A DNA stretch of 35,588 nt from a virus (IMGVR_UViG_2585427725_000018), one strand, 5' to 3'; shown: positions 1 through 35,588, counted from the stretch's first letter. Notes: generated by a model not told the origin, from the letters alone. Program-made: numbers and translations.

Positions 1-280
1 GGTCATAACTCCTCATGTATGTGGGGTGCTCGATGGCTCTCGTTATCTGGTTAAGTGTTTTGCAGCGCGGACATTTTATTTCAATGTAGTGAAATGAGGC
101 GCGGGCAAGTAGTTTGTTGCAATTTTTGCATCGTACATTTTGCGTCATTTGCGGCACCTCTTGTGTGGTTACTGCTGCCGATATGATAACAAATCGATCG
201 CTTTTATCGATCGGATTTATTGCATCGATCTGTTATGCCTATTACTTATGAATGGTGTTACCCTCATTTATGAGGGCAAC

Positions 281-315
281 AAAAAGAAAACCCGCAGTTT
301 TTACGCTGCGGGTTT
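281..315 (-). terminator. Rho-independent terminator downstream of the TM2-domain gene
   Basis: Inverted repeat aaacccgcag / ctgcgggttt (about 10 bp stem, 8 nt loop), followed on the minus strand by a U-rich tract (tcttttt gttg). The gene it follows stops at 341. Confidence 0.6.
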
Positions 316-340
316 GTCATTCTGATTCGCCCACTAGGCA

Positions 341-637
341 TTAGCCATATTTGCGGGCAAAGTCTTCATCAGAGGTGCATAGATAGATAAAAAACTCAAT
401 AAATGCCACGATTGCCGGAATGAATGTCCAGCAAAAAATAAGGTAAAGGAATCCTTGCCCCACTTTACCTAAATAAAATTTGTGTGCACCAAGACCACCT
501 AAAAAGAAAGCCAGTAGTGCTGCTGTCATTCTGCTTTTTGAACTTGCTGTTCTTTGAGGTGCTCCACAATTGGGGCAGGATGTGGCATCTTTATGTATTT
601 CCTTGCCGCATCCGCGACAAAATACCATTTCACTCAT
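341..637 (-). CDS. Zinc-ribbon / TM2-domain membrane protein
   Basis: 98 aa ORF. N-terminal CxxC...CxxC zinc ribbon (CRGCG...CPNCG), then a TM2-like segment (GGLGAHKFYLG...) with hydrophobic helices. ATG preceded by AAGGAA at about 7 nt. Confidence 0.7.
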   Translation of the reverse strand: MSEMVFCRGCGKEIHKDATSCPNCGAPQRTASSKSRMTAALLAFFLGGLGAHKFYLGKVGQGFLYLIFCWTFIPAIVAFIEFFIYLCTSDEDFARKYG

Positions 638-670
638 AAAGAGTTCCTTTCAAATTTAAATAAGCGTTAA

Positions 671-693
671 GCCCACCACTCTTACTGGTGGGC
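671..693 (-). terminator. Hairpin downstream of the hok-like gene (possible terminator)
   Basis: gcccacca (7 nt loop) tggtgggc, 8 bp stem, followed on the minus strand by a moderately U-rich stretch. Weak call. Confidence 0.35.
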
Positions 694-772
694 CTCAATT
701 TAAATTTGGGTGCCACTTCGACCATACCCTGGCAACCGATTGACGGGGGATTGCTCCCCCGTCGCGGTTTCC

Positions 773-913
773 TTACTGCTTACACTGTAAGAACGCCGCA
801 AACTCCGCTCCCCAAAAGCTCATCCGTATTTCACACAGCGAACCGTGCAGCATCCAGATGATGAGGATTACCGTCACGCAGAACGTGATGGCCGTAAGCG
901 ATTTTTGCGACAT
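773..913 (-). CDS. hok: Hok/Gef-family type I toxin (small membrane peptide)
   Basis: 46 aa ORF not on the track (below its size cut-off): MSQKSLTAITFCVTVILIIWMLHGSLCEIRMSFWGAEFAAFLQCKQ. Single TM helix followed by the SLCEIR and E-x-AAF(L/M) motifs characteristic of Hok/Gef/HokA-E peptides. AAGGAG lies 8 nt upstream of the ATG; a 9 bp GC hairpin (742-763) sits in the 3' UTR. Confidence 0.65.
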   Translation of the reverse strand: MSQKSLTAITFCVTVILIIWMLHGSLCEIRMSFWGAEFAAFLQCKQ

Positions 914-1104
914 AGCGCTTGCTCCTTTGTTGGAGAGGCGCTAACCTATCACTTGCTTAAGGTAGATATGTTAGGGCCTCGGTTAAACAAAAATGTTTTC
1001 CGGGGCCTTTCCACATCTGGCCTTCGGGTATTCCCTCCGACCATCAGCCGAAAGGCACCCGCACGTAATCTATCGCTTTTTTGTTACTCCGGCAATTCTG
1101 CCTG

Positions 1105-1365
1105 TTAATTCTGAGATAAAGGTAAACTCATCTGATTGTTTCCCCTGTGTGAAGCTGGCAGATCATGCCACGGGATACCTTCTGAAGAGTGAACGCCGGA
1201 GGCGTGTTTCGATGTGAATTTATGGAAAGCTTCCAGTGTTGAGAAGCATACGCCGCATTCCAGGTTGTTACACTGGTAATACTTTTGCCGCACGGTGTTT
1301 GAATCATTTTCCGGACGACTGGTGCGGATACGGGCAGATGCGCCACAAAGCGGACAACGGAACAT
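1105..1365 (-). CDS. ogr: Late gene transcriptional activator Ogr (zinc-finger)
   Basis: MFRCPLCGASARIRTSR...YYQCNNLECGVCFSTLE matches the Ogr/Delta C4 zinc-finger family. Internal ATG at 1365 chosen over the track start (1380) because GGAGGGGG lies 5 nt upstream. Confidence 0.85.
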   Translation of the reverse strand: MFRCPLCGASARIRTSRPENDSNTVRQKYYQCNNLECGVCFSTLEAFHKFTSKHASGVHSSEGIPWHDLPASHRGNNQMSLPLSQN

Positions 1366-1611
1366 AGATACCCCCTCCATTTAACGTGACGCTTCCGTTA
1401 TTTTTAGTTGCACTAGTACAGATTCTAGCTGACTGTCTCTTTGATTGAAAGTTCTTCTGTACCCATAACTCGATCTCGTAAGAATCTCAACTTGTATAAA
1501 GTTATTAATATAAATTTATACTAATAATTAAAATAGTTGCGCTTGCTGTCATGACATGCAGTTAGCTATTATAAAAGATGAATATATAACCATAGGCAAG
1601 ATATAAACTGG

Positions 1612-1677
1612 ATGGGATAAAAATACCTAGGTGAGTAACTAATTATATTTAATTATTTTGAATATTAGTCACTCACC
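1612..1677 (-). terminator. Rho-independent terminator closing the AT-rich accessory cassette
   Basis: ggtgagtaactaat / attagtcactcacc inverted repeat (14 bp, one mismatch, AT-rich loop), followed on the minus strand by tattttttat. Lies 16 bp downstream of the stop at 1693. Confidence 0.6.
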
Positions 1678-1692
1678 GTGGTATTAGAAAAA

Positions 1693-2097
1693 CTAAATAC
1701 TCTCTTGGTTTTTTTTGATTGTTTTTAGAGTTTCTAGATACTGCCTTTTCCTGTCAAGGCTTTGTTTTACTAATTCTTTATCGGTTGGTGATAAATTTTC
1801 TATATCATCCAATGTAAACTCAGCTTTTATTTTTTCTTGTGCTATCTCCTCAAGTTTTTTATATTTGTTACTGACAATTTTGTTGTAACACCAATTAACT
1901 ATAAGAGGAAGGAATAATGATATAAATACAGTTAACTTACTATAGTTTTCTATTCCTATTATATCTTTCACCCGCTCAGAAAAAGGCAGGGTGAGTATAA
2001 TGCTAGCAATAATTGAAGCCAGAAAACCGTATGCTAATCTACGGACATCGTGATTAGCCTTCAGGATTGTGGGAATTGAGTCATTAGTTTTTGACAT
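1693..2097 (-). CDS. Hypothetical two-TM membrane protein with C-terminal charged coiled-coil region (accessory cassette gene 2)
   Basis: 134 aa. Two hydrophobic helices (LAYGFLASIIASIILTLPF; LTVFISLFLPLIVNWCY), then a Lys/Glu-rich tail. ATG preceded by GGAGGAGAAGG. Start overlaps the upstream gene by 14 nt. Very AT-rich compared with the phage backbone. Confidence 0.6.
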   Translation of the reverse strand: MSKTNDSIPTILKANHDVRRLAYGFLASIIASIILTLPFSERVKDIIGIENYSKLTVFISLFLPLIVNWCYNKIVSNKYKKLEEIAQEKIKAEFTLDDIENLSPTDKELVKQSLDRKRQYLETLKTIKKNQESI

Positions 2098-2644
2098 GCC
2101 CCTTCTCCTCCGCGGTTTGTTTATTTATCATCTTTATAGAGCTTTCATCTATAAACATACTGGCTTCCAGGAGAGCAATTATCATGCTTCCCAAAATAGA
2201 GGACAGTTTGATTGATGCTTTCTTTGAATCATCATTTTTCCCATCGTATTCTGAATAACCAAAATAATCTTTGAATAGAAGGCTTTCAATGTCATCAAAG
2301 AAGAAAAAGGATGTAGTTATAACAATTATTGGCTTCTTGTCTATTATCTGAAACGTTACATTTGTTTTATTGAATTTAATTGATGTGTCATTAACTATCT
2401 TAACTAACTCCATCATGTTATTCGCTACTGGGCGATTAACTATACTCATTGTGAGCGATGGAGAAAATCCTGAATCATCAAAATTCAAATAATATTGAGT
2501 TACAGATGATTCATCTTTGTATTCTTTGTCTATGAAACTTTGTATTATTTTTTTATTCAAAGTCGAGCCATCACTTTCATTATATAATTCAATATTATCA
2601 TCATATCTAAGGGCTACACTATCGCGAATCAAATCAATCAACAT
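2084..2644 (-). CDS. Hypothetical acidic soluble protein (accessory cassette gene 1)
   Basis: 186 aa, Asn/Ile/Lys/Asp-rich, no motif I can recognise. ATG at 2644 (track start 2650 is a TTG two codons upstream) with GAGGT about 9 nt upstream. AT-rich. Confidence 0.55.
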   Translation of the reverse strand: MLIDLIRDSVALRYDDNIELYNESDGSTLNKKIIQSFIDKEYKDESSVTQYYLNFDDSGFSPSLTMSIVNRPVANNMMELVKIVNDTSIKFNKTNVTFQIIDKKPIIVITTSFFFFDDIESLLFKDYFGYSEYDGKNDDSKKASIKLSSILGSMIIALLEASMFIDESSIKMINKQTAEEKGHVKN

Positions 2645-2677
2645 TATCAAAAGACCTCAATTGTTATTCCATGCATA

Positions 2678-2707
2678 ATTATACTAAAAGTATCTTAAAA
2701 ACAGCAA
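2678..2707 (-). promoter_or_regulatory. Sigma70-type promoter driving the accessory cassette
   Basis: On the minus strand: -35 TTGCTG (2707-2702), 18 nt spacer, -10 TATAAT (2683-2678). Predicted start about 27 nt upstream of the ATG at 2644. Confidence 0.55.
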
Positions 2708-2867
2708 AATTTTACATTGGTGATACCTATATGTTGATTGTCCCTCTGAACAGGGGGAACTGCTTTTACAATAATGAATGTAGGGCATTCTGGCGCAGAG
2801 CGGTCAGTCTGATAGGGTTGTGTCATAATCGTGTCAGTACATGCCTGAACTAATACATCTAAGTTGC

Positions 2868-3977
2868 TCACTCTGTTTCTGCTATCCATTCCGGGATTTT
2901 TGCTTCAAGCTCAAGCTGCGTGGTAAAGCCGCTGTTATCAATGGTGTGCTCGGCTTTTGCAATAATCCAGTCCTGATTGTCGATGTCACTTTTGAAGCCT
3001 GTCACCGTGCCATGCATTTCAGGGTAGAGTTCTGCACGTCCACGCGCCAGCGTGATGGAGAATGATGCGGCTCCGCGTTGTAGCTGCTGCCACTTTGCCG
3101 CCGCTGCGCGTCTTGCTGCCTGCTCGTTCTGATAAGTCTTGCGTAACACAAAAACATTGCCTTCCGCACCTTCCATATAATCACCTTCACGGCTGCTGCT
3201 TTTCTCCTTTTTGGGCTTGGGCGGTTTGCGGCGTTTCACGCTGACTTTTTTCTTTTTCCCGTAATTAAGATCAAGCCAGTAAGCGCGTACCCCCGTATAC
3301 GCTTCGCGGTCAGCAATGCGGAACTGATGGCGATCGCCACTGCTGCGCGTGATGGCGAACGAGGGCAACGGCTGGCCCTGTGCGTTCACGCCACCGCCTG
3401 GCATGATGAATAACAGATTACCGCTTTTTACCGTAGTGATTGCGCCCAGCATTTCCGCCATGCGCGTAAGGAAGGACATGTCGCTTTCTTCAGTCTGGTC
3501 GGCGTGGTCGATTTCGATATCCATCAGCATTTCGCTGATTTGCGGTTTCAGGCCGTACCGATGAGCGATGGCGGATACCACACGCTCAACGGTCACATCA
3601 TGCCATGACACCTCACGTTTAACGTTAAATTCATCCCGAAAATCTGCGCTTCTGGCTGAAACAGTCAGCCTGTCGGGCGGTCCTTCATGAGCAATTTCAT
3701 CAACAATGTAAGTGCCTTTTTCTGTCAGCGGTTCTCCCTTCCAGCCAATGAGAACCGTCAGGCGCGCGCCCCGTGGCGGTAGCTGCAACTGACCATCCGC
3801 ATCATCCAGCGTGATGGTGAGCTGGTCCGCCTCAAATCCCCGGTTGTCGGTCAGTGACAGGCTCATCAGGCGCTCTGCCACGCCTGACAGCGTTTTACCC
3901 TCCGCGAGAATATCAAAATCCGGCATTTTCACGGGGTCTGTGCCCTGACTGAGCAATTGCATGGTGGTGTCGGTCAT
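2868..3977 (-). CDS. D: Tail protein D (late control gene D family)
   Basis: Long ORF with gpD-like sequence and a Lys-rich linker (KKKKVSVKRRKPPKPKKEK). Start set at the internal ATG (MTDTT...) preceded by GGGAGGGAG; the track ORF extends 44 codons further upstream. Confidence 0.85.
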   Translation of the reverse strand: MTDTTMQLLSQGTDPVKMPDFDILAEGKTLSGVAERLMSLSLTDNRGFEADQLTITLDDADGQLQLPPRGARLTVLIGWKGEPLTEKGTYIVDEIAHEGPPDRLTVSARSADFRDEFNVKREVSWHDVTVERVVSAIAHRYGLKPQISEMLMDIEIDHADQTEESDMSFLTRMAEMLGAITTVKSGNLLFIMPGGGVNAQGQPLPSFAITRSSGDRHQFRIADREAYTGVRAYWLDLNYGKKKKVSVKRRKPPKPKKEKSSSREGDYMEGAEGNVFVLRKTYQNEQAARRAAAAKWQQLQRGAASFSITLARGRAELYPEMHGTVTGFKSDIDNQDWIIAKAEHTIDNSGFTTQLELEAKIPEWIAETE

Positions 3978-4037
3978 CTGCTCCCTCCCTGTGCGGCATG
4001 GTCGCATGTGCGTGCGGAGGGGGTTACTGCTTTTTGT

Positions 4038-4055
4038 TGTCGCCGGGTCGGGAGA
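4038..4055 (+). promoter_or_regulatory. Candidate Ogr-dependent late promoter element upstream of FI (TGT-N12-AGA)
   Basis: TGT cgccgggtcggg AGA centred about 88 bp upstream of the FI ATG. The same TGT-N12-AGA arrangement appears in the O/P divergent region. Late promoters of this family carry a TGT-N12-ACA element near -55. Confidence 0.3.
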
Positions 4056-4134
4056 ACGGCGCAGGGGTGAGATTACGCGCGTGGTGGGTGATGATTGTTG
4101 CCGAATCATTTAACGGATACAAGGGGCTGAAGCT

Positions 4135-5319
4135 ATGAGTGAAACTCGTTTTCATGGTGCCCGTGTTACGGAAAGTACCGACCTGGTAACAGCGATTAAT
4201 GATGTTGATTCCAGTGTTATCGGTATCGTGGCAACGGCGGATGATGCGGACGCGGAGCTGTTCCCGCTGAACAAGCCCACACTGCTGACCCGCGTCAATG
4301 ACGTGCTGGGAAAATGCGGAACAACGGGGACGCTTTATCGTGCGCTTAAGGCCATCGCAGACCAGGTGAGCACAAAGGTGATCGTCGTTCGCGTGGCTGA
4401 ACACAAAGAAGAAGACGGAAAAACGCAGGATCAACTGGTTATCGGTGGTTCTGAATCTGACGGCAGCTATACGGGGATGTATGCGCTGCTTGTTGCAGAG
4501 CAGGATGAAAGCATCGGATACCGTCCGCGTATTCTGGCCGCGCCGGAGCTGGACACGGAGGCGGTAACAAAATCCCTGTGCGTGATTGCAGGTAAACTGC
4601 GCGCGTTTGTGTATGCCTCATGTCACGGCTGTAACACGATGGCTGAGGCGATTACCTACCGCCAGAAATTCAACGAACGTGAGGTGATGCTCTTATGGCC
4701 AGACTTCATCGCCTACAACCCGAAAAGTGGCAAAAACGAAACGTTCCCCGCGCCTGCCTATGCGTGCGGCCTTCGTGCGTACATTGACCATGAGCAGGGA
4801 TGGCACAAATCACTGTCCAACGTTCCGGTTAAAAATGTGCTGGGGATGTCGAGGCATGTGTTCTGGTCGTTGCAGGCCGAAGACAGCGATGCCAACAGCC
4901 TCAACAACAAAGAAATCACGACCATTATTCGTCGCAACGGGTTCCGCTTCTGGGGCAACCGCACACCGGAAACGAACGCCTACATCTTTGAGGTGTATAC
5001 CCGAACCGCACAGGTGCTGGCTGATTCAATTGCGGAAGCGCAGTTTGAAACCATCGACAGTCCACTGACGCCTGCGAACGTGAAGGATGTTATCAGTGCC
5101 ATCAGGGCAAAACTGGATTCGCTGGTTACTGCCGGGAAACTGATTGGTGCGGAGTGCTGGTATGACGTGGTGGATAACGGCACCACGAATTTACGTCAGG
5201 GACGTGTGCGTATTCGCTACAAATATACGCCCGTTCCGCCACTGGAAGACATGGAGCTTTACCAGACGTTTACTGATGAATTCTTTGGTCCCGCATTTGC
5301 GGTGCTGGGAGGTGCCTGA
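4135..5319 (+). CDS. FI: Tail sheath protein FI
   Basis: 394 aa, strong similarity to P2 FI along the whole length (e.g. LRAFVYAS, LLWPDF, DHEQGWHKSLSNV, IRRNGFRFWGNRT, YTPVPPLE). AAGGGG RBS. Confidence 0.95.
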   Translation: MSETRFHGARVTESTDLVTAINDVDSSVIGIVATADDADAELFPLNKPTLLTRVNDVLGKCGTTGTLYRALKAIADQVSTKVIVVRVAEHKEEDGKTQDQLVIGGSESDGSYTGMYALLVAEQDESIGYRPRILAAPELDTEAVTKSLCVIAGKLRAFVYASCHGCNTMAEAITYRQKFNEREVMLLWPDFIAYNPKSGKNETFPAPAYACGLRAYIDHEQGWHKSLSNVPVKNVLGMSRHVFWSLQAEDSDANSLNNKEITTIIRRNGFRFWGNRTPETNAYIFEVYTRTAQVLADSIAEAQFETIDSPLTPANVKDVISAIRAKLDSLVTAGKLIGAECWYDVVDNGTTNLRQGRVRIRYKYTPVPPLEDMELYQTFTDEFFGPAFAVLGGA

Positions 5320-5831
5320 TGGCTGTACCAAAACATCTTCGCTTTTTTACGTTGTTTGTGGATGGTGAAAACGAAGTGGGTAAAGTGACATCCGTCACGC
5401 CGCCCAAACTGACGCGCAAAACCGACAGCTATCGTGGTGGTGGCATGATGGGGGCGGTAAGTATTGATCTCGGTCTGGACGACTCCGCGCTTGATGCGAG
5501 TTTTGTTATGGGGGGAGCTGTTCGTGCGCTGTTCCTTAAATATGGCGGCACGATTGACGGCACGCTGCTGCGTTTTGCGGGTGAATACTACACCGATGCA
5601 GAAAGCGATCTGTATGAAATCGAGATGCGCGGACGTGTGACGGAAATTGATATGGGGGAAGCCAAACAGGGCGAAGCCACATCACACACTTACGCTGTCA
5701 AAAACACCTACTACAAGCTGAGCGTTAACGATCGCCCGCTGTGGGAAATCGACCTGTTGAACCACATCTACCGGAAGGACGGCAAGGACATTGTGCCTGA
5801 CCGTATCCGTTCCGCGCTTGGGCTTGGCTGA
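5319..5831 (+). CDS. FII: Tail tube protein FII
   Basis: 170 aa; ATGA start/stop overlap with FI; GGGAGGTG RBS; conserved position after the sheath gene. Confidence 0.9.
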   Translation: MAVPKHLRFFTLFVDGENEVGKVTSVTPPKLTRKTDSYRGGGMMGAVSIDLGLDDSALDASFVMGGAVRALFLKYGGTIDGTLLRFAGEYYTDAESDLYEIEMRGRVTEIDMGEAKQGEATSHTYAVKNTYYKLSVNDRPLWEIDLLNHIYRKDGKDIVPDRIRSALGLG

Positions 5832-5886
5832 TAAGTAATATGCAGGCGGCGCAGTGCGTCGCCTCTGACTGAAAAGGAGACAACTG

Positions 5887-6261
5887 ATGAAAGACATCGA
5901 TACTGAAACCCGGAATAACACCGTGGCGGATGATGTGACGGCAGGTGAGGATATGGCTGTCGAACGTGGCGTAAAACTGACCCGACCAATTGAGCGTGGT
6001 GGCGAAAAAATCACGTATGTGGAGATCACCGGGGCTATTGAACAGGCTGGATCCCTGCGTGGTCTGTCGCTGTCTGATGTGCTGAATCTGAAAGCGGATA
6101 CCATGTTCACGCTGTTGCCTCGCGTGACCTCGCCACGACTGGATGAAGTGATGATTAAAAAAATGTCGTCACGCGATTTTATTCAGTTGTGCGCTGTGGC
6201 TGTAAATTTTATGAGCGAGCCAGACTCTGGCGCGAAGAGCGTGCAGGAGACGGCAGCGTAA
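5887..6261 (+). CDS. E: Tail assembly chaperone E
   Basis: AAGGAG 7 nt upstream of the ATG; conserved position between tube and tape-measure genes; contains the slippery A-run used for the E' fusion. Confidence 0.8.
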   Translation: MKDIDTETRNNTVADDVTAGEDMAVERGVKLTRPIERGGEKITYVEITGAIEQAGSLRGLSLSDVLNLKADTMFTLLPRVTSPRLDEVMIKKMSSRDFIQLCAVAVNFMSEPDSGAKSVQETAA

Positions 6262-27608: not shown

Positions 27609-27684
27609 GTCGCTTTTCCTTATGTTGATTAATTAATCGGTTACAGGATTTTTAAATCCCGCTTTTGCCTGTTTTGTGCGCGCT

Positions 27685-30507
27685 TCATATATCGCGGCAC
27701 GTTTTTTGCTCATTTACGGGATTTGTGAGTCCCGTTTCTGTCTGTTTTTTGTTTCCACTGGTCAGGCTACCCCGCAGCAGGTCTGCTTTGCGGTGGGCGC
27801 GTTCAGTGGTTTCACTGATTCTTTGTGCGTGCTCTGCGTCACGGATGGCGCGCAGCATGTCAGAAAGCACGGTAACGGGGGTTTTCATGGTGTTCTGGTC
27901 CTGCTGAAGTGTGGATGCCAGGTGTGCGGCGGCTTCGGGGTCTGATGCCCCCAGCTGTTCCAGATAGCTGGCGACCGGGTTATGGCGGATCTCCGTGCTG
28001 CTTACGCCGTGATTACGGCTCAGGCGCTGCCAGAGTTGCGTGATTCGGCTGTCCGGGCGGGTATCTGGTTTGCGTACAATTTCAAATCCCTGCGGTGCAA
28101 TGATGCTGCCGTCAACGTACAGACTGCCGCCCCGTAACAGGTGCTGCATCTGCTGTTCACCGATATGCAGGCCGAGAGATTCAGCAGACTCCCGCCATTC
28201 TTTAGCGAGTAACTCGTGGTTATCAGGCAAAGGCCGTGGCTGTTTGCGGCTCTGTGTCCAGTTCTGCATTTCATCACTGCTGTTTTTTACCTGTTTGTCA
28301 CGAAGCGAACGCATCAGCGCCCGGCGTTCGTGCCGTTTCAGTGAACGCATCCATTCGTTCACTTCAACGCCGTCAGGGAGCTGCGGCCACGGTGCTGGCC
28401 GTTCTTCCGGCTGTTCTGTCCCGTTGTTGTCCGTTTCCTGTACACGGGGACAGTTATTGCCACGAGTCCAAGGGGCGGCAGGGCCGCCCTGAAGGTCAAA
28501 ACCATTTTCGTGGGTGCTGTCTTCCGCTTCCGGTTTACGTCTTACCAGCTTCCAGTTATCCGGGTGCGTGCACACACGGGAGGATTCCCCGATGAGTGGC
28601 GACCAGATCCCGTAAATCTGTACACTCTGTTCGCCGTAATCGTTCAGCTCATCTGCGAGGTCGTAGGCTGTGCGAATCAGGTAGTCCTTGCGCGGAACAA
28701 GTACGCCACCCTGTTTTTCAATGTAGGTGGCAAAACACCCGGCATCAGCGGCAGCAAGAACCGCATCCATTGCGTCATCCTTCAGCCGTTGCGGGCCCTC
28801 CGGGTTGCGTGCCATCTGGCTGGCAAGGCGGCGGAGTTCACGCCACACCTGACGGGAGGGAATGCCAAAGAACTGGAACTGGCGGACCCGGTGAAGGCGC
28901 GCCCAGCCGATGGCGCGCTCCACGCTCTCGGCCATTGATTTTCCTGTTTCGTGGTCAACGCGTGGCTTGCCCGTTTTCGGGTCGATGCCATCCACGGCGC
29001 GGCTGTCCAGGTTCTTTCCGATGTAGGTGGCGATGTAGCTGGTTGGCGTGCCTTTTGAGCCGTCTACATACTCCGCCTTAAAGCGCGGAGTAATATCATC
29101 GCCCAGCTCGTGACGATCTTCCTGAATGGCAATATCGCGGGTGTGGGACACAATGGTGTCGATTTCTTCCGGATGGGCAAAGACCATCATATGCCAGTGC
29201 ACGGTTCCGTCATGGTGAGGCTCCACCGTGCGGATGCCATACCAGCGCAGGCCGTCGCGGTTCAGTTTTTTGCGGACCGCCGCAAAAAACGTGTTAACCA
29301 GGTAATCGCTGGAGTCGCGCATGGTGGCCCCGTTCCATTTGGGGTTCGGATGACCGTTCTCCGTTGTTGCGTGGTATTTTGACGGGCAGGTGACAGTCAG
29401 AAACACCGCTCTGTCGCCACGGGCTTCGGCCAGAAGTTCCAGTCCCTTCATGGTGGCCATCATTTCTGCCTTACGGTGAACCGGGTTACTTACTCCCGCG
29501 TAATACACTGTCTCGAGATCAATCGTGAACCCGTCTTCATTTTCCAGCATGAAACTTTTCAGGAAATCGCGTGTTTTCTCGCGCTGTGCGCGAAACTCGC
29601 TTAACGCGTCCTGGCTCAGATAGGGTGATGTTTTTCTGGAAACCAGACAGGCGGCGCGGAGTTGTTCTTCTCTCCACTCGCAACGTAACAGCCACAGTTT
29701 GCGTTTCCACCATTCCGCACAGGTCAGGCGAAGGATTGCGCCCGGCAGCAGCTCCGTGTCCGGTTCGTTCCTCCGGTCTTTGTCTGTTGTCAGTGCGTCA
29801 TAATGTGGAGGCATGGCGTGCAGGTGTAACGCCATGCGGGCCAGCATCTGATACGCCTTCAGCGTTACATCCATGGTCAGTTCGCCATCAGTCGCGCCAA
29901 AGCCATCGCAGAGTTTTTCGAAGGTGCTGCTGAACATCGCCGCCGTCATGGTGGCCAGCGTCTGTATCTGGTGCTTGTTGAGCTGCGGCAGGTAAAGCAA
30001 ATCATCCAGGCGTTCGCGTCCGGCAAGGGAGCGATAACCCGGTGTCAGCCAGCGGTGGTCGGTGCGGTCCAGACGTTCGAATATTTTGCGCAGGGTTCCG
30101 CGCGCGTAGCGTTCAGCCTGCCAGCTCTTTTTGCCTTTCCGGCGATCGACTTCCTGTTTTTTGCGCAGGAAGGAGAGGTGGCGAATAAGCGGATCGCGCA
30201 GATAGGACGGCAGCAGGCGCAGCGAGGCCATGGCTTCATCCACCGCGCCGCGTGCCTGTTTTCTGGCGTCTCCTGCCAGTGTGATGGTTTTGTCCTGTTT
30301 TTCCTGTGCATCCAGGCTTTTATTAATCAGGTTGCCCAGCGGCGTGGCGGAGAACGCCGCATCAGCCATTTCCTGGCGGCGCTCGTTCTCTGCCCGGTAG
30401 GCATCCAGCCAGGAGGAAAGCGCAGATTCAGGAACGGGGATCCCCGTTCCTTCACGTCCCACTGCGTGGCGCGGTTGTTGCCAGTCCCTGATGTACTCTG
30501 CCGTCAT
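27685..30507 (-). CDS. A: Replication initiation protein A (rolling-circle nicking protein)
   Basis: Conserved gpA blocks (VFLTVTCPSKYH, GIRTVEPHHDGTVHWHMM, YIATYIGKN). 940 aa as read from the track start; the true start is uncertain. Confidence 0.8.
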   Translation of the reverse strand: MTAEYIRDWQQPRHAVGREGTGIPVPESALSSWLDAYRAENERRQEMADAAFSATPLGNLINKSLDAQEKQDKTITLAGDARKQARGAVDEAMASLRLLPSYLRDPLIRHLSFLRKKQEVDRRKGKKSWQAERYARGTLRKIFERLDRTDHRWLTPGYRSLAGRERLDDLLYLPQLNKHQIQTLATMTAAMFSSTFEKLCDGFGATDGELTMDVTLKAYQMLARMALHLHAMPPHYDALTTDKDRRNEPDTELLPGAILRLTCAEWWKRKLWLLRCEWREEQLRAACLVSRKTSPYLSQDALSEFRAQREKTRDFLKSFMLENEDGFTIDLETVYYAGVSNPVHRKAEMMATMKGLELLAEARGDRAVFLTVTCPSKYHATTENGHPNPKWNGATMRDSSDYLVNTFFAAVRKKLNRDGLRWYGIRTVEPHHDGTVHWHMMVFAHPEEIDTIVSHTRDIAIQEDRHELGDDITPRFKAEYVDGSKGTPTSYIATYIGKNLDSRAVDGIDPKTGKPRVDHETGKSMAESVERAIGWARLHRVRQFQFFGIPSRQVWRELRRLASQMARNPEGPQRLKDDAMDAVLAAADAGCFATYIEKQGGVLVPRKDYLIRTAYDLADELNDYGEQSVQIYGIWSPLIGESSRVCTHPDNWKLVRRKPEAEDSTHENGFDLQGGPAAPWTRGNNCPRVQETDNNGTEQPEERPAPWPQLPDGVEVNEWMRSLKRHERRALMRSLRDKQVKNSSDEMQNWTQSRKQPRPLPDNHELLAKEWRESAESLGLHIGEQQMQHLLRGGSLYVDGSIIAPQGFEIVRKPDTRPDSRITQLWQRLSRNHGVSSTEIRHNPVASYLEQLGASDPEAAAHLASTLQQDQNTMKTPVTVLSDMLRAIRDAEHAQRISETTERAHRKADLLRGSLTSGNKKQTETGLTNPVNEQKTCRDI

Positions 30508-30513
30508 AGTGAT

Positions 30514-30879
30514 TTACTTCGTCATGCCATTCAGGGTGTCGCGGCAGACGGCAGCCAGCCGCTGAATTTCCAGCACGGTGTCTTCTGTGTCGGCATGGCG
30601 ATGTGTGATGCGGATGCTGTCGGCAATCACATCGACGATTGCAGAGGATGGGCGCTGGTAAATGCCAATAACGGACGGGGTGCCACCTTCAATGCGGTAA
30701 AGCCTGTAATTTCCCTCGTGGCTGTCAATCATGTAGCGACCATCAATAACAATCTTTCCGTCAGCGAGCTGCGGTACAGGCAGGGATTTCAGGTACATGT
30801 CATAACGATCACGCACGCGAGCGGCAAGATCACGTTCTGTGTTGAGCAGGTATTCAAGAAAGTCGTTGGCGAGAATCAT
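30514..30879 (-). CDS. Hypothetical early-operon protein
   Basis: 121 aa ORF with AAGAGGA RBS, immediately upstream of A; no family recognised. Confidence 0.55.
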   Translation of the reverse strand: MILANDFLEYLLNTERDLAARVRDRYDMYLKSLPVPQLADGKIVIDGRYMIDSHEGNYRLYRIEGGTPSVIGIYQRPSSAIVDVIADSIRITHRHADTEDTVLEIQRLAAVCRDTLNGMTK

Positions 30880-30951
30880 TGCGGCAATCCTCTTGTTACA
30901 GATGTGCGAAGGCCTCCCGCCGCAAGGTGCAGGAAAGGCCCGGAACAGGAA

Positions 30952-31182
30952 TTAATGGAGTTTGTTTTGCTGCTGGATGAGCTGTTGAAGCTCGCGCAGA
31001 TCATCCGCCAGATAGCTGAAAACAGCGGATGAATAGAGGTTTGAAAGTTCGCAGCTACGCTCATGCAGCATATTGATGTGCATGATTTTAGCGACGCGGA
31101 ATGCGCGGGAAAGTCTGCGGTTGATTTCAGTCTGGATGTGACGACGCTCCGCGATAGTGCGGTGCTGTTTGCGGTTTGCCAT
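30952..31182 (-). CDS. Hypothetical small basic early-operon protein
   Basis: 76 aa, Arg-rich N-terminus, AAGAGG RBS; no family recognised. Confidence 0.5.
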   Translation of the reverse strand: MANRKQHRTIAERRHIQTEINRRLSRAFRVAKIMHINMLHERSCELSNLYSSAVFSYLADDLRELQQLIQQQNKLH

Positions 31183-31358
31183 GATATGTGGCCTCTTGTA
31201 GTAAGTTGTGAAAACTCACCATCCAGAGCTGCGAAACTGTGGGTGGCGAGACGTACGAGGTTCGCAGTACCGGCTACAAGAGATCCCGGCCCGACCGAAG
31301 TCGGCCCCGTACGCCCCGCCATAATTCTGACGCGAAAAAAACGTGGCAATACAGTACG

Positions 31359-31382
31359 CACAAAAAAACCGCTGGCGCGGTT
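31359..31382 (-). terminator. Possible intrinsic terminator inside the early region
   Basis: aaccgc (4 nt loop) gcggtt, followed on the minus strand by T7. Short stem, so a weak call. Confidence 0.35.
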
Positions 31383-31504
31383 GTGCGCTCTTGTAGTCAG
31401 CAGGCTGCGAAACCCGGCACCCGTTTTATGAGGTGCAGCGGAAATGTAACCTGACTGATTGCGGCATGGCAAGCGGTTTTTTTGTGTGTGCATGCTCTGG
31501 TTTC

Positions 31505-31804
31505 TTACTGGTTCAAAAAAAAATCAAAAACCTTGTCAATACGTTGCAGCAGCTCTTGCTGTATTGCTTCCGGCGTTTCCGGTTCGCCTGGCACCTCCAA
31601 TGTCGCGCAGAAATCAGCGATTTCATGATGGAGCGTCAGGCGAATGGCAGGAGCCGTGGTTCTGGCGTGCTCCAGCTCATCCAGCAATGCCAGCGCAGCA
31701 GACGGCGAGAGCATTGCGCGAAATGCCAGTAATTTTTGAGGTGTTGCCATTCGTTGCAGGGCAAATGCCAGTTCGCGTAGCTTCTGGTGGTTGATGGTGC
31801 TCAT
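31505..31804 (-). CDS. Hypothetical protein, Ea22-like N-terminal segment
   Basis: 99 aa; MSTINHQKLRE... and SAALALLDELEH segments resemble the N-terminus of the 180-aa gene at 25727-26269. Confidence 0.5.
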   Translation of the reverse strand: MSTINHQKLRELAFALQRMATPQKLLAFRAMLSPSAALALLDELEHARTTAPAIRLTLHHEIADFCATLEVPGEPETPEAIQQELLQRIDKVFDFFLNQ

Positions 31805-32067
31805 GTTCTGGCTTCCTTCAGTAGCTGGTTAAACATGTGAGTAAGTGGATTGCTACACCCGAACGGCATCGGGTTTACGTGGTAAGAAGCCTGGCCTCCA
31901 GTTTTGCGAGCGCGACCACCTGTGCTGCGGTTTGTTCTGATGACTAAGCCGCCGCGCCAAAGTTGGCGTAACTCAGCATTAATGGCTGTGGTTGGAGTAT
32001 TCAGTGCTGCGGCGATCTCTCCGCCGCTACACCCCGGATGAGTAGCGATGTAGTCCAGAATGGTCAT
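31801..32067 (-). CDS. Hypothetical winged-helix-like protein
   Basis: Start at the internal ATG (MTILDYIATHPGCSGGEIAAAL...) with AGGAG 8 nt upstream; helix-turn-helix-like N-terminus. The track's longer N-terminus would overlap the small ORF upstream. Confidence 0.45.
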   Translation of the reverse strand: MTILDYIATHPGCSGGEIAAALNTPTTAINAELRQLWRGGLVIRTNRSTGGRARKTGGQASYHVNPMPFGCSNPLTHMFNQLLKEART

Positions 32068-32098
32068 CTGCGTGGCTCCTGTACCTGTCGGATAAGGT

Positions 32099-32266
32099 TT
32101 ACCGCGCCACATTAGTGGCGCAGAAGTAAGTGCCGTCAGTGAGGTAGATGTGGTGTGCATCCTTTTCCGAACGATGTTTGTCGATAGTGGTAATCAGGCG
32201 TTCGTCGACCTCGTATTCGCGCCCTCTGGAGGTAAAGCGAACGACGGGAAAATGCTTAATTGCCAT
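32099..32266 (-). CDS. Hypothetical small protein (55 aa, not on the ORF track)
   Basis: MAIKHFPVVRFTSRGREYEVDERLITTIDKHRSEKDAHHIYLTDGTYFCATNVAR; AGGGGG upstream of the ATG; fills the gap between two early genes. Confidence 0.35.
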   Translation of the reverse strand: MAIKHFPVVRFTSRGREYEVDERLITTIDKHRSEKDAHHIYLTDGTYFCATNVAR

Positions 32267-32289
32267 TGCGCCCCCTTTGTCCAGTAACT

Positions 32290-32700
32290 CTATGCGTTAA
32301 ATACGGTGCACTGTGCGTCATCAATGAATGCGACTTGAGAGCGCTCTATCAGGCGGAGATTTGTCAGAATTTCTGATTCCCTTATGGGGTGAGGAGTGAT
32401 CAGGTATTTATCCTGTAACCCGGCGATAATGGTGTATCGCTGTAGCTCCGAGCCAATTGTGTAAATAAGGCGTCCGGTGTTAGACAAATCCAGTCCGGTG
32501 ACTGGTTGTGTTCTGAAAACCGCCAGTTCAGCATCCTGTTTTGCGATAATTTCGGCTGCTTCTGCCGTGACTCTTGCGACTATCAGTGTGTGGGTTGCGA
32601 CGTCCATATGATTATTTGCTATGGCTTTTTTCGCTACTTCGTTTTCTGTCTTTGAAATTTCTTTCAGTGCTCTGATGATACCTTCTTCTTTTGCGTGCAT
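32290..32700 (-). CDS. Hypothetical early-operon protein
   Basis: 136 aa ORF with GGAG RBS; no family recognised. Confidence 0.5.
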   Translation of the reverse strand: MHAKEEGIIRALKEISKTENEVAKKAIANNHMDVATHTLIVARVTAEAAEIIAKQDAELAVFRTQPVTGLDLSNTGRLIYTIGSELQRYTIIAGLQDKYLITPHPIRESEILTNLRLIERSQVAFIDDAQCTVFNA

Positions 32701-32793
32701 TTTTGTATCTCCGTTATTTGCGTGTGCGAATACCTCCGTTAATACGGATGGTTTTCACGTTTTCTTATTTAATTTGATGTTTTATTTGTATCG

Positions 32794-32907
32794 TTATTCA
32801 CCAGTGAAAAAACGTTCAATCTTTTTTACTGAATGAATAATTCGCATAATTCCAATGGCGCAGGCCACCGAAATAATCAGAACAAGCCATGAGATAAATA
32901 TACTCAT
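32794..32907 (-). CDS. Hypothetical 37-aa hydrophobic peptide (not on the ORF track)
   Basis: MSIFISWLVLIISVACAIGIMRIIHSVKKIERFFTGE: one predicted TM helix and a basic C-terminus. Start ATG overlaps the stop of the upstream 80-aa gene (ATGA). Confidence 0.35.
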   Translation of the reverse strand: MSIFISWLVLIISVACAIGIMRIIHSVKKIERFFTGE

Positions 32908-33146
32908 GCGATATTCCCCAGCTTATACGGTTCAATATGTTCCCCGCATTCTGCGGCACAGATCAGCTCGGAAAGTTCGTTAAGTGCATCCAGATCATCA
33001 GCGTAAAAAGCGACGTCATACAAACTCCGGATTGCCCTGGTCAATGAGTCACGGGCTGCACGTTCAGCATGAGCGCCTGATGCACTTAAGCGAAAATAAA
33101 ATCGTTCAAGTGCTTTGTTAATGAGAGTTTTATATTCTTTGCCCAT
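32904..33146 (-). CDS. Hypothetical early-operon protein
   Basis: 80 aa ORF in the co-directional early gene series. Confidence 0.5.
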   Translation of the reverse strand: MGKEYKTLINKALERFYFRLSASGAHAERAARDSLTRAIRSLYDVAFYADDLDALNELSELICAAECGEHIEPYKLGNIA

Positions 33147-33157
33147 CGCAACGCCCT

Positions 33158-33424
33158 TTAATCTGCTTTCTGAATTTCAGCTTCTGAATCCATACAAATA
33201 ATTTCGATATATGGTTCATCGCCATTAACCTGACGTGCCTTTTCAGCTTCGCTAATGATTTCTCGCACGGTCTGGTACGGAAGCTCCACAGTCAGGCGCG
33301 TACCGTTCAGATAAACGTAAGTAGCTGCGTTTTTTTTCGGATGGAACAACTCCGTCAATGGCTGATGCGCGTAATAACAGTTCACCGCGAAAATCAATAA
33401 AACGGATAAATACACCTTGTGCAT
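33158..33424 (-). CDS. Hypothetical early-operon protein with hydrophobic N-terminus
   Basis: 88 aa; N-terminal hydrophobic stretch (VYLSVLLIFAV); preferred over the overlapping 81-aa track ORF in another frame, which has poor composition. Confidence 0.45.
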   Translation of the reverse strand: MHKVYLSVLLIFAVNCYYAHQPLTELFHPKKNAATYVYLNGTRLTVELPYQTVREIISEAEKARQVNGDEPYIEIICMDSEAEIQKAD

Positions 33425-33447
33425 GCTCTTTGGTCATAAAGCACCTG

Positions 33448-33789
33448 TTATAAATCAGCCTGTTTAATAAAACTTTGCCCACGAAGCAGACGATCAACCG
33501 TGCGAAGTGCTTCGTATAATGTGAAATCCTGCCCGAATTGATTGTCGCCGCAGCTCAATGCAAAAATGCGGTTTCCGGTAAACGGATTGCGTGGGCATTT
33601 GTGGACCACGATTCCAGCTTTCTCAATCAGCCAGGCATGCTCGCCGATTTGTTTTACTGGGTAGCCATCCGGCGTTGCGTGTGTATCACTCAGGCTGTAG
33701 CGGATGTTGCTGCGTGATGCACTGGTAGCGAAACGGTTAGCGTGGCGTTCAGCACCATTACGAAAGCGTGAATTACGTTGCTGTTTCAT
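33448..33789 (-). CDS. Hypothetical early-operon protein
   Basis: 113 aa, first gene after cox in the early operon. Confidence 0.5.
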   Translation of the reverse strand: MKQQRNSRFRNGAERHANRFATSASRSNIRYSLSDTHATPDGYPVKQIGEHAWLIEKAGIVVHKCPRNPFTGNRIFALSCGDNQFGQDFTLYEALRTVDRLLRGQSFIKQADL

Positions 33790-33807
33790 ATCAAAACTCC
33801 CTGCATC

Positions 33808-34134
33808 TCATGCAGCAAAATTAAGAAAGCCTAATCCCAAATCTTCCGCCAGCTTCTTGGCTTTCTTAAGCCAGTGATTGCGCCAATCTTTACGCTCAGG
33901 AGGAAGCTGTTTCGTTGCGTCATAGACCATTTCGAGCCACTCATTCCAAAGGATGAGAAGACGGCGCGAACTCCCTTCCTCGCCTAAAACCTCGCGCTCA
34001 GTAGTTAGAGGGATGAGTCGACGCTCTACCAACTTTCTTACGGCTGATTCGGTCTTACCTGTGCGGCGGGAAAACTCATCGACGGTGATGGGGTCTGGGA
34101 TCTTAAACAATGCCCTCAATAGTTCTTCATTCAT
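33808..34134 (-). CDS. cox: Cox-like excisionase / early regulator
   Basis: ITVDEFSRRTGKTESAVRKLVERRLIPL parallels P2 Cox (IPYQEFAKLIGKSTGAVRRMIDKGKLPV). Internal ATG with GGGAGA RBS; divergent from C. Confidence 0.75.
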   Translation of the reverse strand: MNEELLRALFKIPDPITVDEFSRRTGKTESAVRKLVERRLIPLTTEREVLGEEGSSRRLLILWNEWLEMVYDATKQLPPERKDWRNHWLKKAKKLAEDLGLGFLNFAA

Positions 34135-34229
34135 GTGATAATCTCCCTGTTTGGGGTATTTCTTGCGACGGATGCCCCAAATCAAACTCATTTGTATAAA
34201 CATTAATACAGACGTTGGAGAATTGCAAC
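34135..34229. promoter_or_regulatory. Divergent cox/C switch region (early and repressor promoters, operators)
   Basis: 95 bp between divergent cox and C starts; contains an imperfect inverted repeat tttggggtat-N12-atgccccaaa (34150-34181) and an AT-rich TGTATAAACATTAATACA element. Individual promoters not resolved. Confidence 0.5.
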
Positions 34230-34532
34230 ATGCGTATGACTATTGGAGAGCGCATAAAAATCATGCGTGAAAGCGAGAGACTTACTAGCCTCCCGGATAC
34301 AGCAAAAATGCTTGGTTTAAACCGTGATGCTCTGTGGAGATATGAAAGCGGTAAAACTATCCCTAATGCTGAAGTAATTGAGCAAATACTAAACAACCCC
34401 AGATTTGAGAAATATGCGTTGTGGTTTATGACTGGGAAAATTGCGCCTGAATCCGGGCAGATAGCTCCGGCTCTCGCACACTATGGGCAAGAGCCAACGG
34501 ACTTACCCCCATCCGAAAGGAAAATTGGCTAA
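34230..34532 (+). CDS. C: Immunity repressor C
   Basis: MRMTIGERIKIMRESE...YESGKTIP...KYALWFMTGKIAPESGQIAPALAHYGQ is near-collinear with P2 C (...KYTLWFMTNQIAPESGQIAPALAHFGQ). Confidence 0.9.
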   Translation: MRMTIGERIKIMRESERLTSLPDTAKMLGLNRDALWRYESGKTIPNAEVIEQILNNPRFEKYALWFMTGKIAPESGQIAPALAHYGQEPTDLPPSERKIG

Positions 34533-34598
34533 CCCTTTATTATTCTTACGTTTTACAAACTGGAAATGTCTTTCCTCGTTTCACCGGAGGGCTTGCCA

Positions 34599-35588
34599 AT
34601 GGCAATTAAAGCGCTCGATGGTGGACGGTATAAAGTGGATGTTAGACCGCGTGGCCGAAGTGGACGTCGGATTCAGCGGATTTTTAAGAAAAAGGCAGAT
34701 GCAGTGGCCTTTGAGCGTTATGTTCTCAGCCACATGCACGATAAGGAATGGCTTGAAAAGCCAACAGAGCAACGTCATCTCTCAGATCTGCTTCCGTTAT
34801 GGTGGGAATTGGGTGGACGCAATAAGCCATATGCTAACGGCGTTCTAACCAGGTTGAAAAAAATCATCAAAGAAATGAATGATCCAAGGGTTAGCCAGAT
34901 TAATGCTCGTTTCATGGCCGCTTATCGAAGCTCCCGTTTATCCTTGGGAGTAAAAGAGTCTACTGTTCGGCGTGATGAGTCGGATCTCGGAGGAATGTTT
35001 ACACTCCTGGCAAATGCCGGGGAATTTCACGGAGAAAATCCGCTCCGCGCCCTCCCCTCTTTGAAACGAAAATCACCCGAAATGACGTATCTCACCACGG
35101 AAGAAATCGCCAAATTACTGGATGCAGTAAGCGGTGATGCCCGGCGGATTACGCTACTTTGTCTCAGTACTGGGGCGAGATGGGGAGAAGCGAAAAATCT
35201 GCGCGCGGAACACATCATCAATAATCGCGTGACGTTTAACAAAACTAAAAACGGAAAAGTTCGAATTATTCCTGTCTCTGATGAAGTTGTTAGTGAGATC
35301 AAAACAAAGAAATCCGGCCTTTTGTTTGACGTCAATTATGAGGAATATCGCAAGGTGCTTCGCAGTGTTAAGCCAGACCTACCAAAAGGACAGGCTGTAC
35401 ATGTTCTACGCCATACCTTTGCTGCTCACTTTATGATTAATGGAGGAAATATACTTACGCTCCAGCGAATTATGGGGCACGCCACGATCCAGCAAACTAT
35501 GACCTATGCGCACCTCGCTCCTGATTTCCTCCAGGATGCAATTTCACTTAATCCGTTAAAAGGAGGCATCCACATTTCATCCACATAA
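34599..35588 (+). CDS. int: Tyrosine integrase
   Basis: MAIKALDGGRYKVDVRPRGRSGRRI...LLCLSTGARWGEA...HVLRHTFAAHFMINGG...TLQRIMGHATIQQTMTYAHLAPDFLQDAISLNPL is highly similar to P2 Int. The stop codon is the last three bases of the window. Confidence 0.9.
   Translation: MAIKALDGGRYKVDVRPRGRSGRRIQRIFKKKADAVAFERYVLSHMHDKEWLEKPTEQRHLSDLLPLWWELGGRNKPYANGVLTRLKKIIKEMNDPRVSQINARFMAAYRSSRLSLGVKESTVRRDESDLGGMFTLLANAGEFHGENPLRALPSLKRKSPEMTYLTTEEIAKLLDAVSGDARRITLLCLSTGARWGEAKNLRAEHIINNRVTFNKTKNGKVRIIPVSDEVVSEIKTKKSGLLFDVNYEEYRKVLRSVKPDLPKGQAVHVLRHTFAAHFMINGGNILTLQRIMGHATIQQTMTYAHLAPDFLQDAISLNPLKGGIHISST

Follow-up and report, generated by a model that had tools for sequence, protein, structure and literature searches.

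The 35,588-nt viral DNA considered here (IMGVR_UViG_2585427725_000018; hereafter the window) is very probably, at roughly 85%, the interior of a chromosomally integrated P88-like prophage (Xuanwuvirus, P2-type), with the flanks of this particular copy read from those of its relatives. The P88/phiSM group, in the genus Xuanwuvirus of the Peduoviridae, is well known and common in E. coli, and the host of this prophage was almost certainly E. coli or a close relative. The window also encodes an actin-like partition system (ParM and ParR) and a Hok toxin. These are conserved accessory modules of the P88 group, and are not signs of a plasmid prophage. Their co-occurrence with P2-type phage genes is not chance; it is a conserved trait of P88-like phages and is seen in roughly one in four complete E. 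coli genomes.

What places the window in this group? Bases 1-25000 match Chuche, phiSM, P884B11 and P88 at 95-97.5% nucleotide identity over 75-81%, and bases 24000-35588 match the same phages at 95-97.5% over 59-78%. P2-type genes for the virion, lysis, replication (A) and late control (Ogr) are all present, with Pfam matches above cut-off for the P2-family capsid (396.9 bits), GPO scaffold, small and large terminases, portal, sheath, tube, the V/W/J/I baseplate, holin, endolysin, GPA and Ogr; tape measure, gpU, gpD, tail fibre, R, S, L and X are present as well. The virion, lysis and cargo genes, with the last gene of the early region, are arranged as follows.

341-637, minus strand: TM2-domain membrane protein with an N-terminal zinc ribbon, cargo (PF05154, 68.6 bits)
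1105-1380, minus strand: ogr, late-gene activator (PF04606, 52.2 bits)
1411-2858, minus strand: low-GC (31-38%) island between ogr and D (composition profile)
2868-9720, both strands: tail genes D (minus), then FI sheath, FII tube, E, T tape measure and U (plus) (Pfam)
9891-10454, plus strand: hexapeptide-repeat acetyltransferase, cargo (PF00132)
10418-17215, minus strand: tail-fibre assembly, macro-domain protein (11044-11946), tail fibre H, I, J, W, V, S and R (Pfam)
17353-18680, minus strand: lysis cassette of LysB-like ORF, GH108 endolysin (PF05838 and PF09374) and holin (PF05106)
18683-25189, both strands: head and packaging genes X, L, M, N capsid and O scaffold (minus), P terminase and Q portal (plus) (Pfam)
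25727-26269, minus strand: Ead/Ea22-like protein, last gene of the leftward early transcription unit (PF13935, 113 bits)

The low-GC island holds two ORFs (1693-2097 and 2084-2650) with no convincing Pfam, NCBIfam, PADLOC or PHROG match, and it has no alignment to L001, a collinear chromosomal prophage. RefSeq names the L001 homologue of the acetyltransferase a serine O-acetyltransferase, and the L001 homologue of 17353-17760 is annotated as DUF2570, with LysC embedded. A two-way terminator-like hairpin (25519-25551) lies by the Ead/Ea22-like gene at the end of the early unit. The early region and lysogeny module, apart from parMR, comprise the following features.

27685-30507, minus strand: gene A, P2-type rolling-circle replication endonuclease (PF05840, 437 bits)
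31239-31326, minus strand: C4 antisense RNA (Rfam RF01695, 81.1 bits, above gathering score)
31362-31436, minus strand: isrK-like sRNA of the early region (Rfam RF01394, 66.7 bits, above gathering score)
33808-34203, minus strand: possible Cox-like excisionase/repressor, first early-operon gene (PF10743, 24.6 bits, a weak match below the cut-off of 27.5)
34215-34532, plus strand: C-type immunity repressor with a helix-turn-helix (HTH_31 and HTH_3)
34566-35588, plus strand: tyrosine integrase (PF24624, Int_N, and PF00589, Phage_integrase), whose stop is the window's last base

The Cox homologue is called "Cox family DNA-binding protein" by RefSeq in some relatives. Lysogeny would proceed as in P2, with Int recombining the phage att core, a copy of the raiA terminator sequence, into the chromosomal interval that separates raiA from pheL, and with the C repressor silencing the leftward early operon. 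A preliminary description of the window had listed a full set of P2 virion, lysis and replication genes, the C/cox/int module, a type II partition system and a Hok toxin, and every one of these was found.

Relatives of the window sit in the chromosome. In E. coli 89-3156, a collinear prophage lies between raiA and pheL, aligning with the window in seven blocks at 95.6-98.7% identity and bounded at each end by a 20-bp direct repeat. This repeat, CCTTCGGGCGCGTTTTTTGT, is the att core, and it flanks collinear relatives between raiA and pheL in E. coli chromosomes. Positions 32000-35588, including int, are 99.9% identical to a pheL-adjoining chromosomal region of E. coli strain MSI001. Across 5426 complete E. 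coli genomes, the left end of the window was found at 2111 chromosomal and 17 plasmid places, and the int end at 1558 chromosomal and 2 plasmid places. Chromosomal flanks with attL and attR repeats had been named beforehand as the observation that would speak against a plasmid lifestyle; such flanks do bound relatives with a 99.9% identical integrase region, and it is for the relatives that they are seen. A 51-mer specific to the window was found in a single 5.6-kb IMG/VR contig and in none of the GTDB representative genomes.

The two ends of the window are where a gene-based interval would have been cut. As first described, the window starts about 1.1 kb beyond ogr, which ends at 1105, and it stops at the last base of int. 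The description of the phage as "complete" did not hold within the window, where com is cut and both the methyltransferase and the att site are absent. The cut gene is as follows.

1-148, minus strand: com, Mu Com-like zinc-ribbon regulator, cut by the window start (PF10122, 45 bits, model positions 1-36 of 52)

Compared with the full-length Com of L001 and of a second relative, L002, the window holds the first 49 of 65 codons, and, by the gene order of L001, L002 and Chuche, its first six bases (1-6) are codons 1 and 2 of a mom-like DNA methyltransferase gene that is otherwise missing. The Chuche genome runs ogr-hok-com-methyltransferase-(about 310 bp)-int, and because the roughly 1 kb that joins com to int there (methyltransferase and attP) is missing from the window, the window's ends are not contiguous in the phage circle. 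The attP/attR core, mapped in L001, lies about 94 nt past the int stop in relatives and so outside the window, where it was not found even with three mismatches allowed. The prophage interval thus appears to stop some 0.9 kb before attL is reached on one side and some 0.1 kb before attR on the other. An alternative is that the window is a complete, plasmid-only circular replicon, linearised between int and com after losing the methyltransferase and attP. An end on an exact stop codon, a start near a gene start, the absent att core and the partition and toxin genes would all fit such a circle. However, joining the ends would truncate and re-tail Com, and would remove exactly what lies between the stop codon of int and the start of the methyltransferase gene, a pattern to be expected if an interval is cut by gene coordinates and not if a deletion arises naturally; such a junction is absent from all records examined, and the closest relatives of both ends are all chromosomal. 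This alternative is thus highly improbable. The preliminary description had offered a predicted prophage interval or a linearised circle without choosing between them; the former is supported, and the cut com, the absent att core and the missing connector argue against the latter.

The partition genes follow gene A directly.

26333-26644, minus strand: parR, adaptor, 103 aa (PF10784, 80.5 bits; PHROG 2515 over its full length, 193 bits)
26649-27608, minus strand: parM, actin-like segregation ATPase, 319 aa (PF06406, 272 bits, and PF21523, 225 bits)
27641-27751, minus strand: candidate centromere (parC-like) with putative ParR sites (two 38-nt repeats, 73 nt apart)

ParM matches R1 ParM (PDB 1mwk) over its full length (310 bits, residues 2-316), with the three nucleotide-binding motifs aligned. 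The gene for ParR lies directly downstream, after a 4-nt gap, and its product ends in the C-terminal tail N-I/V-x-x-x-F/L-P-E/D common to plasmid ParRs. One 38-nt repeat lies between A and parM and the other within the final codons of gene A, and each contains the palindrome ACGGGAYT-N4-AATCCCGT (27643-27662 and 27716-27735). This palindromic repeat occurs just twice in the whole window, both times upstream of parM, and no iteron array was found at the candidate centromere, which has these two sites only. The upstream regions of 83 related loci were aligned, and in the 13 commonest variants, which were inspected, the palindromes are kept, with single-base changes in a few. Two sites are far fewer than the ten iterons of R1 parC, and their assignment as a centromere is tentative; they could instead be part of the replication origin or sites for another regulator.

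Both partition genes are maintained in prophages. The parM ORF is intact in 85 of 85 ungapped copies and parR in 50 of 50, and pN/pS is 0.05 for parM versus 0.14 for gene A across the same 62 loci, which were chosen as the closest ParM matches, a choice that itself lowers pN. Hence, parMR is under strong purifying selection in prophage copies. Could ParMR and Hok nevertheless be inert leftovers of past recombination with plasmids, having no role for the phage? They occupy variable sites of the P2 plan (ParMR between A and the portal gene, Hok between ogr and att), and neighbouring cargo varies among relatives. This idea is scarcely credible given the low pN/pS, the intact ungapped copies, the conservation of the ParM-binding tail of ParR and of the upstream palindromes, and the retention of the genes in phages whose integration modules are of at least three kinds.

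The toxin gene lies near the other end of the window.

773-913, minus strand: hok, Hok/Gef-family type I toxin, 46 aa (PF01848, 30.1 bits, cut-off 22; PHROG 251, 82.8 bits)
903-1060, minus strand: possible hok mRNA leader/sok-like region (Rfam RF01794, 47.6 bits, E 2e-9, below the gathering score of 59)

PHROG 251 is labelled "MokW-like host killing", and the homologue in relatives is Hok/Gef in RefSeq. The transcript predicted from 740-1075 on the minus strand folds with z = -6.1. Hok and its structured leader would form a prophage-borne type I toxin module, of a kind also common on chromosomes, that probably makes losing the element costly to the cell or hinders other phages.

Do these phages sometimes live as plasmids? 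The preliminary description considered a P2-type phage-plasmid unusual, but the idea is not new: Pfeifer et al. 2021 (PMC7969092) flagged P88 for the same genes, listing it among putative phage-plasmids with suggested episomal and integrative states, and they noted its integration. On such a reading, P88-like phages would be facultative episomes, kept at low copy when integration is delayed or attB is unavailable, with ParMR acting on a two-palindrome centromere and Hok killing cells that lose the phage. [quoted passage not shown] It is likewise improbable that the window derives from a facultative phage-plasmid, either integrated or as a low-copy circle replicated by A, segregated by ParMR and secured by Hok. 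In favour are the complete R1-type ParMR under purifying selection, the presence of Hok, the listing of P88, and a circular "plasmid" record, pZ1323PEC0009-2 (34,461 bp), that is an entire P88-like genome with the int-attP-methyltransferase junction intact. Because this record exists, free circles of P88-like phages can be abundant enough to assemble, and an occasional episomal state may occur. Outside the group, D6 alone among the phages of the collection has a ParM of this type (47% identity), and it adds weight only if it is a P1-like phage-plasmid, which we take it to be.

Several lines of evidence argue against plasmid lysogeny. First, parMR, present in 1307 of the 5426 genomes, is chromosomal in 1453 of 1455 places, and one of the two plasmid cases is a prophage integrated via the att core into a larger D6-like replicon. 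Second, an attP rebuilt for the window's integrase type is present in 183 of these genomes, at a median of two separate places, and is split into attL and attR in 183 of 183, with an intact attP in none. Third, pZ1323PEC0009-2 is the one circular P88-like record among 72,556 plasmids, and its integrase type is chromosomal in 311 of 311 places. Fourth, phage-plasmids as defined usually have no integrase and are propagated as plasmids during lysogeny (PMC12977533), whereas the window has a tyrosine integrase and every annotated relative keeps its integrase. Fifth, a profile search of the window detected no plasmid-type initiator, copy control or theta-type replicon, and the sole replication gene found is A, a rolling-circle initiator. 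Finally, parMR has no promoter of its own by consensus scan, and would be silent under C repression if it were read from the early promoter only.

A chromosomally integrated prophage may still use ParMR. Once the phage has infected a cell or been induced, parMR would be read together with the replication genes, because it lies on the same strand directly behind A, with no sigma-70 consensus promoter on the coding strand (crude consensus scan) and no terminator seen between A and parM. Such a scan could miss a promoter in the 76 nt between A and parM if it is weak or controlled by ParR. ParR may then bind the two palindromes just upstream of parM, and ParM filaments may position or separate free circular phage genomes, either before integration or after excision. 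There is a precedent in the AlpAC system of the integrated Corynebacterium prophage CGP3, an actin-like system that is reported to act on phage DNA after induction and not to maintain a plasmid (PMC4446434, PMC5539076). AlpAC/alpS of C. glutamicum CGP3 likewise combines an actin-like ATPase with a DNA-binding adaptor. Its actin-like subfamily and the phylum of its host are different, and the analogy is purely functional.

Comparison with R1 ParMRC highlights both kinship and divergence. The ParRs share Pfam family PF10784 and the C-terminal tail, the parM-parR order is the same, and candidate binding sites lie upstream in both. The R1 parC has ten iterons of 11 bp in two blocks of five, whereas the window has two palindromic sites 73 nt apart; unlike R1 parC, the window's site has no recognisable promoter, and, unlike the R1 cassette, its parMR is embedded in the early operon of an integrating phage. 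Phage-plasmids, of which P1 and D6 are examples, typically encode a virion along with partition and addiction functions, and the window too has a partition system, ParM and ParR. Unlike them, the window encodes Int, C and a Cox-like protein, and its relatives lie almost always on chromosomes.

The closest known systems are the Escherichia phages P88 and Chuche, and phiSM. The window is a mosaic variant of this group, with an integrase of the raiA/pheL type where that of phiSM is of the pdxB type. The low-GC island between ogr and D is shared with only some relatives, and, compared with L001, whose corresponding gene encodes an M15 peptidase, the window has a GH108 endolysin, and the cargo from the portal gene to parR differs too. 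Because of where it was cut, the window lacks the terminal segment with the methyltransferase and att. P88 and phiSM are temperate by experiment and integrate into the chromosome: phiSM, a Citrobacter phage, forms chromosomal lysogens at pdxB, and P88 has attL and attR and is induced by mitomycin C (PMC6456863, PMC5285337). Gene order is the same in P88, phiSM, Chuche and the window, and nucleotide identity is 95-97.5% over most of the genome. All four have the A-parM-parR arrangement, the phages' ParMs being 97.5-99.4% identical to that of the window, and in all four hok adjoins ogr.

Partition and Hok genes on a P2-type phage are the hallmark of a genus that already has a name; GenBank records annotate the combination, and it has been discussed before as a possible phage-plasmid signature. 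The window is another mosaic member of the P88 group, the P88-like phages of the genus Xuanwuvirus. The observation made in the preliminary description is confirmed; the reading of the window element or its relatives as a phage-plasmid is not supported. An ORF listing and profile searches recovered the claimed P2 virion, lysis and replication sets in full. By profile searches, the P2-type morphogenesis set is complete: P2-family capsid, GPO scaffold, small and large terminase, portal, L and X on the head side, and sheath, tube, E, tape measure, U, D, V, W, J, I, tail fibre, fibre assembly, R and S on the tail side. The lysis genes encode a holin and a GH108 endolysin. The C/cox/int module, the type II partition system (by Pfam and alignment to R1 ParM) and the Hok-type toxin are likewise present, and the window runs from 1.1 kb beyond ogr to the int stop codon, as described. 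The replication, control, lysogeny, partition and toxin features are as follows.

773-913, minus strand: Hok; above the Pfam cut-off, with a PHROG 251 match
26333-26644, after a 4-nt gap downstream of parM: ParR; PF10784 match
26649-27608, minus strand: ParM; both ParM Pfam domains, aligned to R1 ParM end to end (310 bits)
27685-30507, minus strand: gene A, replication; PF05840 (437 bits)
Ogr: late control; profile match
Lysogeny module: tyrosine integrase, HTH repressor and a weakly matching Cox-like protein; profile matches

In the alignment, the nucleotide-binding motifs of the window ParM and R1 ParM are in register; ParR has no match among solved structures. The leader upstream of hok resembles Rfam sok (47.6 bits, under the gathering score), and the hok transcript is unusually structured (fold z = -6.1).

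Over most of its length, the window shares 95-97.5% identity with Escherichia phages Chuche and P88, Citrobacter phage phiSM and Xuanwuvirus P884B11. A collection of 50,697 phage records has its ParM type in these P88-like phages (97.4-99.4% identity) and, outside that group, in phage D6 alone (47%); ParM and ParR each have their own PHROG family, labelled “partition protein”. Thus, the co-occurrence that had drawn attention is the normal gene content of the genus. Pfeifer et al. (2021), in a search of phages for plasmid functions, listed P88 as a putative phage-plasmid (PMC7969092), and the phiSM paper lists a partition gene as cargo (PMC6456863), so both the observation and the phage-plasmid hypothesis are already in print. 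No complete E. coli genome carries bases 1-3200 at ≥80% coverage. A window-specific 51-mer at the junction of ogr and a low-GC island matches one 5.6-kb IMG/VR contig, which ends short of the window start, and has no match in GTDB representative genomes. A ParM 97% identical to the enterobacterial phage ParM of the window is found on a contig labelled Vagococcus sp. WN89Y (NZ_JBQPOM010000071.1), an assembly that is probably contaminated or mislabelled.

Is the window a linearised circle or a predicted prophage interval? Both options had been offered. The window opens 6 nt into a mom-like DNA methyltransferase gene, at a point that also falls within the overlapping com, 49 of whose 65 codons are in the window; the com-methyltransferase module is cut by the window edge (window 1-148). 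In phage Chuche and the circular plasmid record pZ1323PEC0009-2 (NZ_CP148288.1), the order is ogr-hok-com-methyltransferase-attP-int. The window ends would therefore be separated by ~1 kb in the phage circle, which argues against a linearised circle. The prophage interval is favored by the cut com, by the chromosomal location of relatives and by the att core, a 20-bp repeat flanking relatives, which has no match in the window at up to three mismatches. Judged from the truncated com gene and the relatives, the window is an interval cut within a prophage, not a closed replicon. A Mu-like com overlapping a DNA methyltransferase gene sits at the att-proximal end of P88-like prophages; in the E. 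coli 89-3156 prophage (locus L001), 5163-6111 corresponds to the part left of the window.

The relatives are overwhelmingly chromosomal. The E. coli 89-3156 prophage is collinear with the window in seven blocks (95.6-98.7% identity) and lies between raiA and pheL, with a 20-bp direct repeat, CCTTCGGGCGCGTTTTTTGT, at both ends that is the raiA terminator. The last 3.6 kb of the window, including int (32000-35588), is 99.9% identical to a stretch directly adjoining pheL in strain MSI001. In 5426 complete E. coli genomes, 2111 of the 2128 places matching the left end of the window are chromosomal, as are 1558 of 1560 for the int end and 1453 of 1455 for parMR, the last distributed among 1307 genomes. 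The attP junction for the integrase type of the window was rebuilt and searched for; its sequence occurs in 183 genomes, where it is typically split into two halves at different places, and no record in this search holds it intact. Published biology agrees with this chromosomal location: phiSM forms chromosomal lysogens at pdxB (PMC6456863), and P88 has attL and attR and is inducible by mitomycin C (PMC5285337).

What of plasmid and free-phage records? Near-identical parMR occurs in seven of 72,556 plasmid records. Five range in size from 228 kb to 1.4 Mb and, on size alone (far above one ~35-kb phage genome), were not counted as phage-sized episomes; the sixth is a 26.8-kb linear fragment. 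The remaining record, pZ1323PEC0009-2, is circular, has 34,461 bp and comprises an entire P88-like genome in which the int-attP-methyltransferase junction is intact. In complete E. coli genomes, the integrase type of this circle is chromosomal in 311/311 places. The simplest explanation of the circle is a phage that had excised, was replicating and was caught in the assembly, but it leaves room for an occasional episomal state. A further candidate, pCREC455-3 (NZ_CP183151.1), is a ~95-kb D6-like replicon with its own RepB initiator and its own ParMR. The P88-like prophage within it (record 1-34400) has an int-end region 99.8% identical to window 32000-35588, and its junctions lie exactly at the att core, within a tail-fibre-like gene. 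This record was rejected as a P88-type plasmid, being a phage integrated at the att core in a D6-like phage-plasmid. “Escherichia phage 520873” was similarly rejected as an independent circle. Its record is a linear contig on which a fragment of the host gene yecA, split genes and an IS100 insertion mark a defective chromosomal prophage.

Several other parts of the window deserve mention. First, the endolysin has been exchanged: the window encodes a GH108 + PG_binding_3 protein (17757-18302, minus strand), and the otherwise collinear E. coli 89-3156 prophage an M15 peptidase. Second, a hexapeptide acetyltransferase (9891-10454, plus strand) adjoins the tail-fibre genes and a macro-domain protein (11044-11946, minus strand) lies among them; both are likely lysogenic-conversion or fibre-associated cargo. 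Third, the early region holds a P1/P7-type C4 antisense RNA (81.1 bits) beside an isrK-like sRNA (66.7 bits) at 31239-31436 (minus strand), overlapped by a weak Ash-like ORF (30876-31493); the pair looks like an immI-like RNA control module within a P2-type phage. Fourth, the island (1411-2858, GC 31-38%), between ogr and D, is present in only some relatives and has two overlapping ORFs (134 and 188 aa), neither of which matches any family in Pfam, NCBIfam, PADLOC or PHROGs. The island may serve as a slot for cargo or defence genes. A defence reading of ParMR or the island was rejected, as PADLOC returned no meaningful matches.

The parM and parR genes are not relics. All ungapped copies (85 of parM, 50 of parR) are intact, and in a shared set of 62 loci pN/pS is 0.05 for parM versus 0.14 for gene A; for parR it is 0.21. 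A caveat is that the loci were chosen for ParM similarity, which lowers pN. The window ParR and that of the E. coli 89-3156 prophage (L001 31205-31519) represent two allele classes that are only 52% identical. The N-terminal strand is retained in both classes, as is a C-terminal tail that plasmid ParRs share, and both are paired with nearly identical ParM and upstream palindromes, with a recombination breakpoint inside parR. These palindromes, ACGGGAYT-N4-AATCCCGT, lie upstream of parM, one in each of two 38-nt repeats with a spacing of 73 nt. Both repeats are present in the aligned upstream regions of 83 related loci, with single-base changes in a few, and occur nowhere else in the window; they are the best candidates for a centromere.

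As a discovery, the gene combination matters little. What ParMR does is relevant to the way temperate phages manage their DNA from entry until integration. P88-group phages are carried by ~24% of complete E. coli genomes, and selection on ParMR is as strong as that on the replication gene. Literature searches found no experimental study of ParMR in P2-like phages, and no experiment explaining why an integrating phage retains an actin-like segregation machine. Because both P88 and phiSM can be cultivated and manipulated genetically, the role is directly testable.

How might ParMR act in an integrating phage? Between gene A and parM there is neither a sigma-70 consensus promoter nor a terminator, and a two-way hairpin near 25530 apparently ends the transcription unit holding parMR. 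Given this arrangement, parMR would be co-expressed with the replication genes from the early promoter, presumably after infection or induction and not in the repressed lysogen, and the target would be free circular phage DNA. We consider this mechanism of early expression and action on free phage circles about as likely as not; the evidence for the integrated lifestyle is far stronger. Iterons upstream of plasmid parM genes are far more numerous than the two P88-type repeats, for example the 11-bp-spaced repeats in the D6-like replicon. The IncL/M plasmid pKPC-edb7 (locus L007, 3150-3320) has repeats upstream of parM at 72-73 nt spacing, which hints at a centromere geometry shared with the phage palindromes. 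There is also precedent for an actin-like system in an integrated prophage: AlpAC of the Corynebacterium prophage CGP3 (PMC4446434, PMC5539076).
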